From Escherichia phage vB_Eco_F27, in the sequence record OP870146.1: DNA of 64,000 bases; one strand, given 5' to 3'. Positions 12,801 to 43,029 of the stretch are shown here, in pieces (positions within the stretch are counted from its first letter, which is position 1; each line of letters starts with the position of its first letter). A program made the position numbers and the translations under genes. The notes under the pieces are model-generated. The model ran no database searches. It saw nothing but the letters and a program-made list of their open reading frames with translations, and was not told where the DNA came from.

Positions 12801-13083
12801 AAGAAATAATTCCTTGGTAAGCCCAATAAGGAGGATTAACAGGATCCTCGCCAGAGTTTTCTTCAGGAAAATAAACCTGGATAACGAAGCCGGATTCATC
12901 AAAGGTAAAATAAACCGTAGGCAGTTCACCTAACAAATCGGCACGAGCGTTGATTTCTTCGAGGTCTTGTTCACGTCCAGCCCAGAAGCTTGGGTTCAGA
13001 CTACATTCATAGAAATAATAGTCATTACCGAACATATCAAAACCATTCCAACTCTCTACTACATACCGCTCAAAACTAATCAT
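12766..13083 (-). CDS. hypothetical acidic protein
   Basis: 105 aa ORF. Confidence 0.4.
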   Translation of the reverse strand: MISFERYVVESWNGFDMFGNDYYFYECSLNPSFWAGREQDLEEINARADLLGELPTVYFTFDESGFVIQVYFPEENSGEDPVNPPYWAYQGIISCGTKLELKEQD

Positions 13084-13085
13084 AA

Positions 13086-13301
13086 TTAAGCCTTTTTATC
13101 AAGAACAGAATTCAGTTTATTAGTAATTTTGTCCAAACGTTCATTGAATTCGCTGGAGGATAAACCCTTTTCTGGAGAAATTAAACTAATCACGAAAAAT
13201 ACGCCAGTAAAAGGAATAAGAAAAATAGCTCCAACTGCCATAAACAAAAAGAACGTTACAGTTGTAAGAAAATCAGCTAAACCTTTACGAAATTTGTACA
13301 T
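13086..13301 (-). CDS. small membrane protein
   Basis: 71 aa with a hydrophobic core (FFLFMAVGAIFLIPFTGVFFVISL). Confidence 0.4.
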   Translation of the reverse strand: MYKFRKGLADFLTTVTFFLFMAVGAIFLIPFTGVFFVISLISPEKGLSSSEFNERLDKITNKLNSVLDKKA

Positions 13302-13411
13302 ATTTACCCTTAATTAACTAAGCATTGATAATCATTAAACTATATTGCGAATAAAATTCTGGACCAAAACGAAAAATCATATCATTTATAGTATCCATAA
13401 TGTAATTCAAT

Positions 13412-13882
13412 TTAATCATGTTTCCACACCCCATCGGTATTTGACCAAAGTCGCTGATTATCTGATCCTCGCCACAGCTTTTTAGTCGGAAGATTTTTCT
13501 CATACTTCCCATCAATAATAACATCAACATATTTAAGCATTTCTAGTTGTTTAATATCTTCAAACTTATATCCTGTCCACAACCAAATGCTTTTATTGGG
13601 ATAAAGATTTTTTACTGTTTGAACAATGCAATGAATAACATCTCGGTTATCAGGATAGAGAGGGTCACCTCCGGTTATAGTTAATCCTTCTATATAATCA
13701 TTATTCAAACATTCAATTAATTGTTCTAGTGTTTCACCAGTGAATGGAACACCATTTCTAGCATTCCATGTTGATTTATTATAACACCCTTCGCATTTAT
13801 GCAAACAACCCGTAACGAAAAGAACGACCCTGCATCCAGGGCCATTCACAAAATCGCAAGGATAAAATCTATCATAATTCAT
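13412..13882 (-). CDS. nrdG: anaerobic ribonucleotide reductase activase NrdG (radical SAM)
   Basis: 156 aa with CLHKCEGC (CxxxCxxC). Same length and near-identity to T4 NrdG. Confidence 0.9.
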   Translation of the reverse strand: MNYDRFYPCDFVNGPGCRVVLFVTGCLHKCEGCYNKSTWNARNGVPFTGETLEQLIECLNNDYIEGLTITGGDPLYPDNRDVIHCIVQTVKNLYPNKSIWLWTGYKFEDIKQLEMLKYVDVIIDGKYEKNLPTKKLWRGSDNQRLWSNTDGVWKHD

Positions 13883-15158
13883 TGGTGTTTAACCCTATGC
13901 ATGATTTCTTTATTTTTACCGAGATTAAATCCGCGTTCGTTCGGATTTCCCAAATAACCACATGTTCTTCTTATTGTGTTCATCTTTTTAGGATCAGTTT
14001 CTCCACAAATAGAACAAACAAATCCGTTTTCAGTAGGAGTCATTTCATGGGTACTTCCACATGTAAAACATTTATCTACTGGCATATTAACACCAAAATA
14101 ATCTAAATGTTGTGCAGCATAATCCCATACGGCCTCAAGGCCTTTCAAGTTATTTTTCATATCAGGAAGTTCAACATAAGAAATGTGACCACCTGTCGCA
14201 ATGAAATGATATGGCGCTTCACGAGAAATCTTTTCAAACGGAGTAATATTTTCTTCTACTGAAACATGGAAACTGTTAGTGTACCAACCTTTATCGGTAA
14301 CATCTTTTACGCTTCCATATTTTTCTGTATCAAGTTTACAGAAGCGGTAACAAAGGTTTTCAGCAGGAGTAGAATACAAACTAAAAGCAAATCCAGTTCT
14401 TTCGGACCACTGTTTAAGATGAGCATTCATTTTAGTTAAAATTTCTTGCCCAATATCACGACCGACAAGAATATTCAATTCGTGAATACCAATGTATCCT
14501 AAAGACACTGAACTTCTACCGTTTTTAAATAACTCAATTATGTCGTCATCAGGTTTAAGACGAACCCCGAATGCACCTTCTTGGTAAAGAATAGGAGCAA
14601 CAGTCGCTTTAACACCCTTTAAAGAACTAATTCTACACATCAAGGCTTCAAAACACAGATCCATTCGTTCATTAAACAATTCGATAAATTTCTGTTCATT
14701 GAACTGTGTTCCAATATAAGAATCTAATGCGATACGAGGAAGATTCAGTGTTACAACACCAAGATTATTACGTCCATCAAGAATTTCATTACCGGTTGAA
14801 TCTTTCCACACACTCAAAAAACTGCGGCAACCCATTGGAGAAACAGGAATAGATGAGCCGGTGATAGCTTTATTGTTCTTAGCTGAAATAATATCAGGAT
14901 ACATTCTTTTGCTTGCACATTCTAACGCAAGTTGTTTAATATCATAGTTCGGATCATCTTTATAAAGATTAACACCTTCTTCAACAAACATAACAAGTTT
15001 AGGAAAAATAGGAGTTATTCCATCACGACCAAGGCCTTTAATGCGGTTTTTAAGAATTGCCTTCTGAATCATTCGTTCAGTCCAGTCAGTTCCCGTACCA
15101 AATGTAATTGTTACAAAAGGCGTTTGACCGTTTGAACTGAAAAGTGTATTTACTTCAT
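13879..15158 (-). CDS. nrdD: anaerobic ribonucleotide reductase NrdD, exon 2
   Basis: Exon 2 begins AT GAA GTA AAT (..EVNTLFSS) at 15158, directly after a G. C-terminus is ...RRTCGYLGNPNERGFNLGKNKEIMHRVKHQ (glycyl-radical site). Joined with exon 1 it encodes 605 aa, the T4 NrdD length. Confidence 0.85.
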
Positions 15159-16202
15159 CATTATATTCAGCATGAGTCGCAAATTCATGCCCGTTTATAT
15201 GAAACAACAAAATTTGGATAGTCCATAGATATGCAACGTTCTTTTATAGTGCTAGGATGAAAATTTAGCGCTTTAGCTGCTTCTATATAAGACGTATACT
15301 TAATACCGTCAACAACCACATATTCAGGAACTTTATGAATAGTAGTCTTAATACTCAAAACAAGAGGATGAGTTTCGACTTCACTTTCAGTGCAATTTAA
15401 ATATTCCGCTGCTTTTTTAAAACTTCTAAAAGTTTTATTTTTAAGCTTTATCGATACTTGTTTTTTACTTTTTCGACTATTGATATTATTTTGCACATGT
15501 TCCTTAGATCTTCCGTTTTTAGCATAATATTCAGCTACAGAAGATTTTATATTGTTTTTATGAGATTCGGATAACACTTTACCCTTATGAGCATCTCTTA
15601 ATTTTTGAATATGTTCTTCAGTATCCGGATGCTTATAAAACTTTTTACCGCCTATGGATTTATTTAAACATTTTTTGCTATAAAAATATTTACGTATGAC
15701 CTCTTCTTCATGTTTTAATGCATCTTTATAACTATCAAATGTTTTTAAAATTATCCATTTAGTAGGTGTATCAGTTTTTAAGCGTTCATTTATATACTTA
15801 GATGACGTTGTGTAAGTTTTCCAGTTTGTGGGCTTGTTTTTAATTGTTCTAAATTTTTTATAACCGATATAAATGTCGCCATTAGAAAACTTAACTAAGT
15901 ATGTAAATGCGTCTTTATCTTTTATTTTAGTACAACGTCTTTTATCCATTTCATTGTTTCACCTCGTATTCATAAGATAATCTTATTTATACAAGATGAC
16001 TGCTGCATGTCGCCATGCAGATTAGACTATATCTTCATCTTTCGATGCCGGTCGTTTCGAATAGCATTAGCTTCTATTCTACACCGCTACATTCATCACG
16101 GTTAGTCGTTAGGCATTTAGTTCAAAAGAACATTTAGCACGGGATTGTCTACTAGAGAGGTTCCCCGTTTAGACCGGTTTTACATGAGCCTGAATTAAAT
16201 TA
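15159..16202 (-). mobile_element. group I self-splicing intron in nrdD (1044 nt)
   Basis: Exon 1 is readable to ..DAFQAYE then hits a stop. Exon 2 resumes in frame only if spliced after GAG-U (16203) to AU-GAA (15158), restoring the T4 sequence AFQAYEYEVNTLF. The 5' exon ends in U and the intron ends in G. The intron contains a free-standing endonuclease ORF. Confidence 0.8.
15185..15949 (-). CDS. intron-encoded GIY-YIG homing endonuclease
   Basis: 254 aa. N-terminus FTYLVKFSNGDIYIGYKK (GIY-10-YIG spacing), HEEEVIRKYF and CLNKS motifs as in I-TevI/Seg. NUMOD3-like repeats (TEEHIQKLRDAHKG, SESHKNNIKSSV) and C-terminal HTH-like segments (AAEYLNCTESEV, IEAAKALNFHPSTIKERC). GAGGTG SD before ATG 15949. 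Confidence 0.7.
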   Translation of the reverse strand: MDKRRCTKIKDKDAFTYLVKFSNGDIYIGYKKFRTIKNKPTNWKTYTTSSKYINERLKTDTPTKWIILKTFDSYKDALKHEEEVIRKYFYSKKCLNKSIGGKKFYKHPDTEEHIQKLRDAHKGKVLSESHKNNIKSSVAEYYAKNGRSKEHVQNNINSRKSKKQVSIKLKNKTFRSFKKAAEYLNCTESEVETHPLVLSIKTTIHKVPEYVVVDGIKYTSYIEAAKALNFHPSTIKERCISMDYPNFVVSYKRA

Positions 16203-16740
16203 ACTCATACGCCTGGAACGCGTCATAGACATCTTTTTCTGTTTTAGATTGAGCATAATTCAACGCATCAGCGATTTGCCATTTTTCTGCATCTTCAACA
16301 TGTTTAGCGTATGTGCGTTTAACATAAGGAGAAAGTACTTTATCGACATTCGCAAATGTAGTTCCGCCATACTGGTGTGAAGCAACTTGTGCAGTAATTT
16401 GTGCCATAATTGCAGTAGCAACGCCAATAGATTTAGGCGTTTCAATTTGAGCATTGCCTAATTTAAATCCATTCTCAAGCATCCCCTTTAAATCGACCAA
16501 ACAGCAATTAGTAAACGGAAGAGCAGGAGAATAATCAATATCATGCATGTGAATGATTCCGCTTTCATGCGCATTCATAATAAAAGACGGGACCATATTT
16601 TTGGCAATGTGCTTAGACACAATACCAGCCATAAGGTCCCGTTGAGTTGGAAAAACACGAGAATCTTTATTAGCATTCTCGTTCAAAAGATCTTTATTAG
16701 TTTTATGAATTAATCCTTCAATTTCTTTTTCAATTTTCAT
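16203..16740 (-). CDS. nrdD: NrdD exon 1
   Basis: MKIEKEIEGLIHKTNKDLLNENANKDSRVFPTQRDLMAGIVSKHIAKNMVPSFIM... is near-identical to the T4 NrdD N-terminus. The reading frame terminates at 16195 unless spliced. Confidence 0.85.
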
Positions 16741-17210
16741 TTTAAACTCTTTCTAAGCTGCTTTTTGAATGAAGCTATTAATTGTGTTTTAGTATCAGAT
16801 TCATTATATTCAAATCCTCTTTGAAGCATCTCGGCCATCATTTCCTCTTTACCTAGTCTTGAGAACTCTTTAGTTTTGTCTGGAACAAAATTAGGATGGA
16901 TATTATTAGCAGAATAATCTTGTTTCAAATAAGCAAGAAGAGCTTCAAGCCATTCGAGGTAGTCGACATCACGACCTTTAAGACCAGAACGGTTGAACTT
17001 ATGCTTCATTTGTCCTTCTGCTGCGTTGCACAGAGAACAGAGTAATCCACGAACTCTACCGGCTTTTGGCCCGTTTAATTCATGGTCGTGGTCAAGATGG
17101 TTACCTTGAACATCAGGGTCTAATTCACGGTGGCAAATAGGACACTTACCGTTCTGTGCATCATAAAATTTTTGTTTTTCTTCTTTATATTTTGCGCCTG
17201 ATAATAACAT
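16737..17210 (-). CDS. 49: endonuclease VII (Holliday junction resolvase) gp49
   Basis: 157 aa, CPIC...LCSLCN zinc site, C-terminus ...ESDTKTQLIASFKKQLRKSLK identical to the T4 EndoVII C-terminus. Confidence 0.9.
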   Translation of the reverse strand: MLLSGAKYKEEKQKFYDAQNGKCPICHRELDPDVQGNHLDHDHELNGPKAGRVRGLLCSLCNAAEGQMKHKFNRSGLKGRDVDYLEWLEALLAYLKQDYSANNIHPNFVPDKTKEFSRLGKEEMMAEMLQRGFEYNESDTKTQLIASFKKQLRKSLK

Positions 17211-17245
17211 GATAAACCCTTACCTTAAATAGATAAGGGTATTTA

Positions 17246-17671
17246 TTAACTTAAACGTCTTTCTAAATATTCAATGTATTCTGCGGCTGCTTGCATCAGG
17301 TTACCTTCATAGCCGTCGTTATTTTCTTGTCCGGCTAATTTAGCTAATGCATAAGAAATTCGTTCACCTTCGAATTCACCAAGTTTACTACCTAGCACAT
17401 CCGCAATATCAGCCGAATCAATTTCTTCGAGTTCATCTATTGAATGTGATTCCCAGAAGCACCAAAGAGAAGTATCACGGTCATAGATGCAAAGTTTCTC
17501 ACCAGTGTTCAACATCACTTCAATAATGCCATGGTCGCCATAACCATCTTCGGTAGTAGTACCAATTACCTTGATGATTGTATCTTTCTTTAATTCAGGA
17601 AACTTGACTTGTAGTTCTTCATCTTCTTTAACAATCTTGAACCATTTACCGCGAGTTTCAGAAATATTCAT
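17246..17671 (-). CDS. hypothetical acidic protein (pin/49.1 position)
   Basis: 141 aa ORF. Confidence 0.4.
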   Translation of the reverse strand: MNISETRGKWFKIVKEDEELQVKFPELKKDTIIKVIGTTTEDGYGDHGIIEVMLNTGEKLCIYDRDTSLWCFWESHSIDELEEIDSADIADVLGSKLGEFEGERISYALAKLAGQENNDGYEGNLMQAAAEYIEYLERRLS

Positions 17672-17672
17672 A

Positions 17673-17870
17673 TCAATATTCTCTATAAAAGTTATGATGA
17701 GAACGTTTAGCTTTGCGAAGCTGACGTTTAGTAGGACGAACTGTAAATGGTTGTCCGGAGAAAAAATTTGGTTCAGTTTTAATCAACACATACCAATCGT
17801 GTTCGCCACTTTTTAATAAACGGTATAACAATTTAACTTGCATAATAATCTCTTCCCATTTCCAAATCAA
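17673..17870 (-). CDS. hypothetical basic small protein
   Basis: 65 aa ORF. Confidence 0.35.
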   Translation of the reverse strand: MIWKWEEIIMQVKLLYRLLKSGEHDWYVLIKTEPNFFSGQPFTVRPTKRQLRKAKRSHHNFYREY

Positions 17871-17971
17871 TTATATCGTTTACTGTAGGTTCATTATAAC
17901 ACGTTTCTTCGTCGTTGTAAACTGTTTCGACGTCTGGCTCGACAGTTTCCCATCGAGCCGAATACCATGGT

Positions 17972-18328
17972 TTAGCCCCGGAGTTTATTGAGCTCTTCAT
18001 AATCAATCCAGGATTCTAGCCCTGACGGCAGGTCACATTCAATGTTCCACAGAAGCTCTTCAATGGCTTGCAGGCGATTATATTCTTCAACGGTAATGGT
18101 AACCATTGGTGCAACCGGTTCTGCCTTTTTAACCATCATATCGTTCATCAGGACGTAAAGGTCATCACGAACGTCAGTGTCGTTCCAACCCCATGATTTG
18201 GCTTCGTAAGCTAATGATGAAGTGAGCACATTTAAAACTTCAATAATAGTTGGAGCATCAGGACCAAGTTCATTGGCACAAACTTCGTATACATCTTGGA
18301 AATCTTTAAGATTTAATGAATATGTCAT
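17972..18328 (-). CDS. hypothetical
   Basis: 118 aa ORF. Confidence 0.45.
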   Translation of the reverse strand: MTYSLNLKDFQDVYEVCANELGPDAPTIIEVLNVLTSSLAYEAKSWGWNDTDVRDDLYVLMNDMMVKKAEPVAPMVTITVEEYNRLQAIEELLWNIECDLPSGLESWIDYEELNKLRG

Positions 18329-42777: not shown

Positions 42778-42854
<77 letters not shown>

Positions 42855-42954: not shown

Positions 42955-43029
42955 TGGTGGCCCTGGCTGGTTTCGATCCAGCTACCTATCAGTTATGAGC
43001 TGACAGCTCTCCCATTGAGCTACAGGGCC
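42955..43029 (-). tRNA. tRNA with CAU anticodon (Met, or Ile2 if lysidine-modified as in T4), CCA encoded
   Basis: Hand-folded. Acceptor GGCCCTG/CAGGGCC, D-stem GCTC/GAGC, anticodon stem GTCAG/CTGAT with loop CUCAUAA, T-arm GCTGG-ATCGAAA-CCAGC, discriminator A, then CCA. Confidence 0.8.

Follow-up and report, generated by a model that had tools for sequence, protein, structure and literature searches.

A probable RB69-lineage version of the T4 nrdD (sunY) intron, with a frameshifted endonuclease gene, in Escherichia phage vB_Eco_F27

The gene nrdD of Escherichia phage vB_Eco_F27 was analysed in a stretch of 64,000 nucleotides (nt) from sequence record OP870146.1, referred to here as the window. 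In the window, nrdD lies on the minus strand (16740..13879) and is interrupted by a 1044-nt group I intron (16202..15159). We are highly confident that this intron is the RB69-lineage version of the T4 nrdD (sunY) intron, that is, a mobile group I intron of subgroup IA2 carrying a gene of the I-TevII family, which is frameshifted in the window. An earlier reading, made from the letters and a list of open reading frames (ORFs) and referred to here as the sequence-only reading, had proposed a group I intron of this length in nrdD, and this is confirmed by frame restoration, an Rfam match and covariation.

Splice sites and intron core

The features of the interrupted gene are as follows.

16203..16740, minus strand: nrdD exon 1, 538 nt, ending ...GCG UAU GAG U (from the ORF listing and a reconstruction of splicing)
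15159..16202, minus strand: group I intron, 1044 nt, starting UAAUUUAAUUC and ending ...AUAUAAUG, with its terminal G at 15159
16003..16234, minus strand: catalytic core (P1, P3-P9, P7.1, P7.2), matched by Rfam RF00028 and lying wholly upstream of the intron ORF
16183..16189, minus strand: internal guide sequence GCUCAUG, pairing with UAUGAGU of exon 1 as P1, with U.G at the 5' splice site
15170..15190, minus strand: 3'-terminal hairpin GCAUGA/UCAUGC, which holds the ORF stop codon and is followed by CUGAAUAUAAUG and the 3' splice site
13879..15158, minus strand: nrdD exon 2, 1280 nt including the stop codon, starting AUGAAGUAAAUACAC

The exon 1 ORF (16740..16195) reads ...DAFQAYE and then continues only with L, I and a stop, and a second frame, which is open over 15210..13879, reads ...EVNTLFSS... 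through to the end of NrdD. Both frames appear in the ORF listing just as the sequence-only reading had described them. Excision of 15159..16202 leaves 1818 nt that encode 605 amino acids (aa) with no internal stop, the protein junction being AFQAYEYEVNTLF; in the predicted ligated RNA, ...UAUGAGU is joined to AUGAAGU... (at the junction, ...UAUGAGU is followed by AUGAAGUAAAU...). The ends obey the group I rules, since U16203 pairs with the G of GCUCAUG and G15159 is the last base of the intron, and the splice junctions that had been placed at 16203 and 15159 are correct to the nucleotide. The spliced product aligns with the crystallised T4 NrdD (1H78) from end to end, residues 1-605 on 1-605, with 1398 bits, so that the T4-like NrdD expected by the sequence-only reading is indeed regenerated. 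At the nucleotide level, exon 1 is 92.0% identical to T4 and 95.4% identical to phage JK45, and the corresponding values for exon 2 are 94.7% and 95.3%.

A complete group I core is present upstream of the ORF. When 15900..16260 was scanned, Rfam Intron_gpI (RF00028) matched over the full model (1-253) with 73.1 bits (E = 7e-19; gathering score, 50), and the T4 nrdD core scored 105.3 bits under the same test. Helices were placed by hand on the T4 nrdD intron. P1, P3, P4, P6a, P7, P7.1, P7.2, P8, P9, a hairpin over the ribosome-binding site (RBS) of the ORF and the 3'-terminal hairpin are formed in both the window and the T4 introns; among the helices compared, 17 changes between the two are both-sided, 3 are one-sided and none is disruptive. 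The sequence-only reading had looked to a P1 pairing with UAUGAGU, which is found with GCUCAUG at 16183..16189, and to P3, P4, P6 and P7 in an alignment with T4 sunY, where these helices are present, P3, P4 and P6a with compensatory changes and P7 with a stem identical to that of T4.

The alignment was extended to four lineages (the window type, the T4 type and two metagenomic lineages). Across its 54 pairs, 98.6% of cells are paired, and compensatory change is seen in 21 pairs. None of 500 shuffles matched the observed value, and sliding the 3' partners reduced pairing to 32-39%, with at most 2 compensatory pairs. P1 covaries with the exon, being UAUGAGU/GCUCAUG in the phages and CUUGAGU/GCUCAAG in the metagenomic relatives; the 5' splice site is thus independently supported. 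P7.1 and P7.2 lie between P7 and P3' and contain 2 and 5 pairs with both-sided change, respectively. These two helices define subgroup IA2, and the intron is of this type, like those of T4 td and nrdD. In the 3'-terminal hairpin, four of the six pairs are compensatory relative to GUAGAG/CUCUAC of T4, and equivalents occur in the contigs of the two metagenomic lineages (L008 and L011). The loop of this hairpin keeps GCGA across the lineages (UAGCGA in three of the four) while the stems differ completely; the conserved GCGA may mark a tertiary contact.

By homology to T4, the guide GCUCAUG would pair with UAUGAGU of exon 1 to form P1 and place U.G at the splice site. The P3-P9 core, within the first ~205 nt, would then bind guanosine, with the terminal G (15159) setting the 3' splice site, and exon ligation would yield a normal 605-aa NrdD. 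The competing view is that nrdD is permanently split or broken and the insert is kept in the RNA, either as genes in pieces, like nrdA of Aeromonas phage Aeh1, or as a pseudogene. The annotation of nrdD as two separate coding sequences (CDSs) in most database records fits such a view. However, the complete core scoring above the Rfam gathering score, its extensive covariation, the U.G pair at the 5' site, the terminal G and the exact restoration of the frame all speak for splicing, and the homologous T4 intron is annotated within a joined CDS and is described as self-splicing and mobile (PMC2988022). We regard a permanently split or broken nrdD as very improbable. The two nrdD fragments and the free 'homing endonuclease' found in most records should instead be annotated as a joined CDS.

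The window intron most closely parallels its T4 counterpart. The insertion falls exactly at the T4 position, between U and A of a Tyr codon (...GAG U, then AU GAA...). In DNA letters, exon 1 ends TATGAGT in both phages and exon 2 begins ATGAAG in both, with the intron running TAACG...CATTG in T4 and TAATT...ATAATG in the window. The order of elements is also the same (core P1-P9, late promoter, RBS hairpin, ORF and 3' hairpin with the stop codon), P1, P7 and P9 have identical stems, and the T4 enzyme likewise combines GIY-YIG and NUMOD. Identity amounts to 181 of 230 aligned core positions, 65% of nucleotides in the ORF (56% of amino acids) and 69% over the whole intron. The two introns differ in that P3, P4, P6a, P7.1, P7.2 and the 3' hairpin are rebuilt by compensatory changes, P8 is shorter in the window, the window intron is 1044 rather than 1033 nt long, its RBS hairpin is longer and its canonical endonuclease start is frameshifted. 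Unlike the T4 nrdD intron, the window type is hosted mostly by RB69-type phages.

The T4 td intron, which encodes I-TevI, also shares the IA2 core type and a GIY-YIG enzyme with the window intron, but it interrupts a different gene and holds its ORF in the P6 loop, whereas the window ORF follows P9. I-TevI is only 24% identical to the window ORF in a MAFFT multiple alignment that misplaces the GIY motif and was therefore left unused for catalytic residues. Within the core, window positions 16132-16173 (intron nt 30-71, P4-P5-P4') agree with the td intron at 42 of 42 positions. The surrounding segment, nt 26-75, matches the T4 nrdD intron at only 35 of 50 positions, but it is this intron that the remainder of the core resembles more. 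This pattern suggests a domain exchange between td and nrdD introns. Exchange of this kind has been described for T4.

The endonuclease gene and its start

The features of the endonuclease gene are as follows.

15185..15949, minus strand: ORF of an I-TevII-family GIY-YIG homing endonuclease, 254 aa, from an overlapping ATG 5 nt 3' of the canonical start
15922..15954, minus strand: canonical endonuclease start (ATG at 15952-15954), which opens only the 10 codons MKWIKDVVLK*
15940..15943, minus strand: A4 run, the frameshift site; A5 in 43 related records
15984..15991, minus strand: TATAAATA, the late-promoter consensus of T4, immediately before the endonuclease gene (read from the sequence)
15959..15999, minus strand: hairpin over the endonuclease Shine-Dalgarno GAGG (15962-15965), from folding

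The 254-aa ORF is 56% identical to T4 I-TevII over 252 residues (E = 2e-99). In Pfam it matches SegE_GIY-YIG (PF19835; 26.7 bits against a cut-off of 25) and NUMOD1 (25.3 bits against 22.8), and it matches the homing endonuclease family PHROG 314 (E = 2e-27). No HNH family occurs among its Pfam matches at E values up to 1, and its best relatives are all GIY-YIG. The sequence-only reading, which held that the ORF is not of the HNH type, was right in this, and its assignment to a GIY-YIG/NUMOD endonuclease stands; the N-terminal motif, however, is FTY-x9-YIG, a degenerate form also present in I-TevII, and not GIY-x10-YIG. The ORF proposed at 15185..15949 likewise exists with 254 aa, but the canonical start is 15954 rather than 15949. 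Apart from its first two residues, the ORF is 100% identical to many proteins annotated as homing endonucleases. NCBIfam contains no match for either the ORF or I-TevII, no relative of the ORF was found in PDB, and a word-indexed protein search returned nothing beyond its own cluster.

The nrdD intron of T4 and RB3 had been taken to encode the HNH enzyme I-TevIII, and a GIY-YIG enzyme at the T4 site was accordingly read as a sign that the site had been invaded independently by, or had swapped to, another endonuclease family. The GIY-YIG and NUMOD domains of the ORF and its lack of an HNH domain are what would favour this. The premise, however, is mistaken. I-TevI (td) and I-TevII (nrdD) are GIY-YIG enzymes, whereas I-TevIII is the HNH enzyme of nrdB and is active in RB3 (PMC2988022). 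The T4 annotation agrees, with nrdD given as a two-piece join enclosing I-TevII and labelled 'GIY-YIG family' and 'group 1A intron in nrdD'. The T4/RB3 nrdB intron, with which the nrdD intron had been confused, resembles the window intron in its group I type and in interrupting a ribonucleotide reductase gene of T-even phages, but it has another host gene and an HNH enzyme. Divergence between the ORF and I-TevII is even along the protein (52-63% identity in each 50-residue block), the surrounding ribozyme is homologous, and two more distant metagenomic lineages carry the same enzyme family at the same nrdD site. Because the ORF is homologous to I-TevII, the insertion nucleotide is identical and the cores are homologous, there has been no endonuclease swap and no independent invasion; we would allow such an event only the slightest chance. 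The main value of the analysis is to correct the record: the element does not represent a new endonuclease-intron pairing but is the RB69-lineage relative of a mobile intron that is among the best studied.

Expression of T4 I-TevII depends on a late promoter and on a hairpin that sequesters the ribosome-binding site, and late transcripts begin within the hairpin and so free the site (PMC2988022). In the window, TATAAATA occupies the same place as in T4, and it is annotated as a late promoter in phage SA20RB. The hairpin at 15959..15999 has a minimum free energy of -17.3 kcal/mol (z = -5.8, with none of 200 shuffles as stable), compared with -10.5 for its T4 homologue. By analogy with T4, the window endonuclease gene, which lies downstream of P9, would be controlled in the same way, with the hairpin masking its ribosome-binding site on early read-through transcripts and the late promoter in front of it providing transcripts for translation.

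The start of the gene differs from that of its relatives. In JK45, SA20RB and T4, the endonuclease starts ATGAAATGG (MKW...), and intact relatives read MKWIKRRC... from the canonical ATG. At codons 5-6 the window has ATGGATAAAAGACG where relatives have ATGGATAAAAAGACG, a 1-nt deletion that turns A5 into A4. Aligned with a 71-nt probe, each of the 43 full-length matches extends over 72 nt and includes one gap, which corresponds to A5. As a result of the deletion, the canonical ATG opens only 10 codons, and the window copy has no intact reading frame from the start codon of the I-TevII family. Protein would come only from the overlapping in-frame ATG (15949), which spares all except the first four residues and lies 12 nt from GAGG, compared with 7 nt for the canonical ATG (15954). 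Since the canonical frame is broken and the overlapping ATG has poor Shine-Dalgarno spacing, the endonuclease gene has probably been weakened or begun to decay; the ribozyme is intact. The description of intron and endonuclease gene together as 'active-looking' was thus overstated for the gene. Programmed frameshifting at the A run was considered as a means of rescuing the canonical start and rejected, as neither a slippery heptamer nor a stimulatory structure is evident. Exact pattern scans of IMG/VR found neither the A4 nor the A5 allele.

A stronger version of this decay is that the gene is already a pseudogene, in which case the deletion is genuine, the enzyme is produced barely or not at all, and an immobile intron is losing its ORF. 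We consider this nearly an even chance, falling slightly short of it. The uniform A5 of the 43 full-length relatives, together with the 10-codon ORF from the window ATG, supports it, as does phage BYEP01, in which the same A4 state is accompanied by a deletion of ~700 nt from the ORF, leaving a 345-nt ORF-less intron. Frameshifted copies also exist elsewhere, those of F1, FN and 236Ecol005PP aligning in two pieces. On the other hand, the ORF beyond its start is 100% identical to intact copies, so any decay must be very recent, and the 12-nt spacing from GAGG may still permit some initiation.

Several points weigh against the view of the window intron as a mobile RB69-lineage version of the T4 nrdD intron with a frameshifted gene. 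The A4 run could have arisen as a sequencing error in a homopolymer, and the gene would then be intact. The core was absent both from a 5-kb Rfam E-value scan (13000-18000) and from a gathering-score scan of the whole window, and Rfam scored it only when the 361-nt stretch 15900..16260 was scanned, so that its detection depends on filters. Self-splicing is predicted from homology to T4 and from covariation, and endonuclease activity and the cleavage site are predicted from T4 I-TevII, whose identity to the ORF is only 56%. The misses in the wide Rfam scans are filter effects and no sign that the intron is absent; introns with ORFs of this type may therefore escape routine Rfam annotation.

Distribution, probable spread and apparent decay

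The window genome is of the RB69 type. Over 10 kb around nrdD, RB69 is 95.6% identical to the window (93% covered), compared with 78.9% for T4. The closest relative, JK45 (NC_054940.1 / MK962757.1), is Mosigvirus jaykay in the current NCBI taxonomy. The JK45 record line still reads Tequatrovirus jaykay, and genus labels in these records are unreliable for telling T4-type from RB69-type phages. In RB69 itself, nrdD is uninterrupted (1818 nt) and 94.9% identical to the spliced window gene, and RB69 has been reported to lack group I introns (PMC1524935). An intron in such a genome had been called notable on the grounds that RB69-type genomes are intron-poor. The window is indeed RB69-type and RB69 is intronless, but the claim is weakened by the frequency of the intron: ~150 RB69-type records were counted at a diagnostic marker and 43 carry it, which is roughly a quarter to a third, with GenBank/RefSeq duplicates included in both counts.

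Introns of the window type occur at >99% identity in 43 full-length phage records, and the window intron is 99.8% identical to those of JK45 and SP21535. Matches at the protein level place the window-type endonuclease in 44 records, with none between 95% and 57% identity. The T4-type intron, searched for with a query that held 1022 nt of the T4 intron, is present in 25 phage records (T4 and derivatives, PST, RB55, RB59, U5, fPS-2 and others). Full-text literature searches turned up no description of an RB69-lineage nrdD intron variant. The RB69-lineage intron is an experimentally uncharacterised new lineage of a long-known mobile element, and it is widespread in public RB69-type genomes.

More distant relatives were found in an exhaustive HMMER search of 1.84 billion representatives, in which only three lay at E < 1e-30: the ORF's own 50% cluster, P0002 and P0003. 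I-TevII (56%) is presumably also inside the ORF's own cluster, as it has no separate listing. P0002 and P0003 are each 38% identical to the ORF and lie on short metagenome contigs. Both contigs carry NrdD exon 1 (...DAFQ(A/G)LE), a group I core (65.9 and 81.5 bits), an I-TevII-like ORF of 257-267 aa after P9, and exon 2 (YE(V/I)NTL), although in them P1 has changed in step with a differing exon sequence. Because these contigs share the site, the core and the enzyme family, a single site in nrdD has been home to one pair of intron and endonuclease in no fewer than four diverged lineages.

Between the window and JK45, the intron is 99.8% identical and the flanking exons are 95.3-95.4% identical; between the window and T4, the intron is 69% identical and the exons are 92-95% identical. 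This is an old intron lineage with recent spread, the signature expected of homing. In intact relatives, the enzyme presumably cleaves intronless nrdD not far inside exon 2, within a few bases of its start, and repair of the break would copy the intron together with adjacent exon sequence; the cut made by I-TevII lies about 13-15 nt into exon 2. Exon 2 opens with the same 21 nt, ATGAAGTAAATACACTTTTCAG, in all window-type carriers, including BYEP01. The start of exon 2 reads GUAAAUACACUU in RB69-type phages and GUGAACACGUUA in T4, with five synonymous differences in the first 17 nt. In BYEP01, exon 1 is 97% T4-like, yet the exon 2 tract is of the window type.

Two phages that carry the Tequatrovirus label, SA20RB and BYEP01, are T4-like in the genes before nrdD (pin, gene 49; 93-95%) but resemble RB69 from the intron through nrdG (91-94% RB69/window-like in nrdG), which places a mosaic boundary at or near the intron. 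This pattern is consistent with intergenus transfer of the intron along with its downstream flank, homing being the putative cause. A long co-conversion tract from a break in exon 2 would leave a mosaic of the kind seen in these two phages. It is conceivable, but in our judgement rather doubtful, that the specificity of the RB69-lineage enzyme is tuned to RB69-type exon 2 and that homing also drives exchange between the genera. If the specificity reading were true, partial insulation or competition between the two nrdD intron lineages would follow, and, more speculatively, a difference in specificity from I-TevII would make the pair useful for studies of GIY-YIG retargeting.

The known copies also illustrate loss of the endonuclease gene. 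BYEP01 (OR757453.1) carries at 2284-2628 an ORF-less derivative of the window-type intron, 345 nt long and scoring 72 bits in Rfam, in which ~700 nt of the endonuclease gene have been deleted between two imperfect repeats, ATAAAAGACGTTG and ATAAAAGAACGTTG. The remnant is in frame with exon 2, and a spurious 1377-nt 'nrdD' CDS has therefore been annotated from the endonuclease ATG. In F1, FN and 236Ecol005PP (MT682712, MZ170041 and PP434423), the endonuclease ORF aligns in two pieces at 96% identity, as independently frameshifted copies. The copies of the window, BYEP01 and these three phages look like successive stages of endonuclease-gene decay. Together, 43 intact copies, the frameshifted copy of the window and the ORF-deleted copy of BYEP01 offer a clear natural series through the life cycle of a homing endonuclease gene.

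Neighbouring genes and minor observations

Gene 49 (endonuclease VII) lies upstream of nrdD, and nrdG lies directly downstream. In the window, nrdG (13412..13882) overlaps the end of nrdD at 13879-13882, as it does in RB69. Between nrdD and nrdG, T4 has the HNH gene mobC, and SA20RB and BYEP01 have other endonuclease genes (MobC-like, NUMOD3 protein). The last 30 nt of exon 1 (16203-16232) read GATGTCTATGACGCG in the window and GACGTATACGATGCA in JK45, T4 and BYEP01; the five window differences are synonymous and clustered 17-29 nt upstream of the splice site. Elsewhere in the window, two tRNA genes are present on the minus strand at 42781-42854 and 42958-43029 (Rfam tRNA, 71.1 and 62.4 bits).

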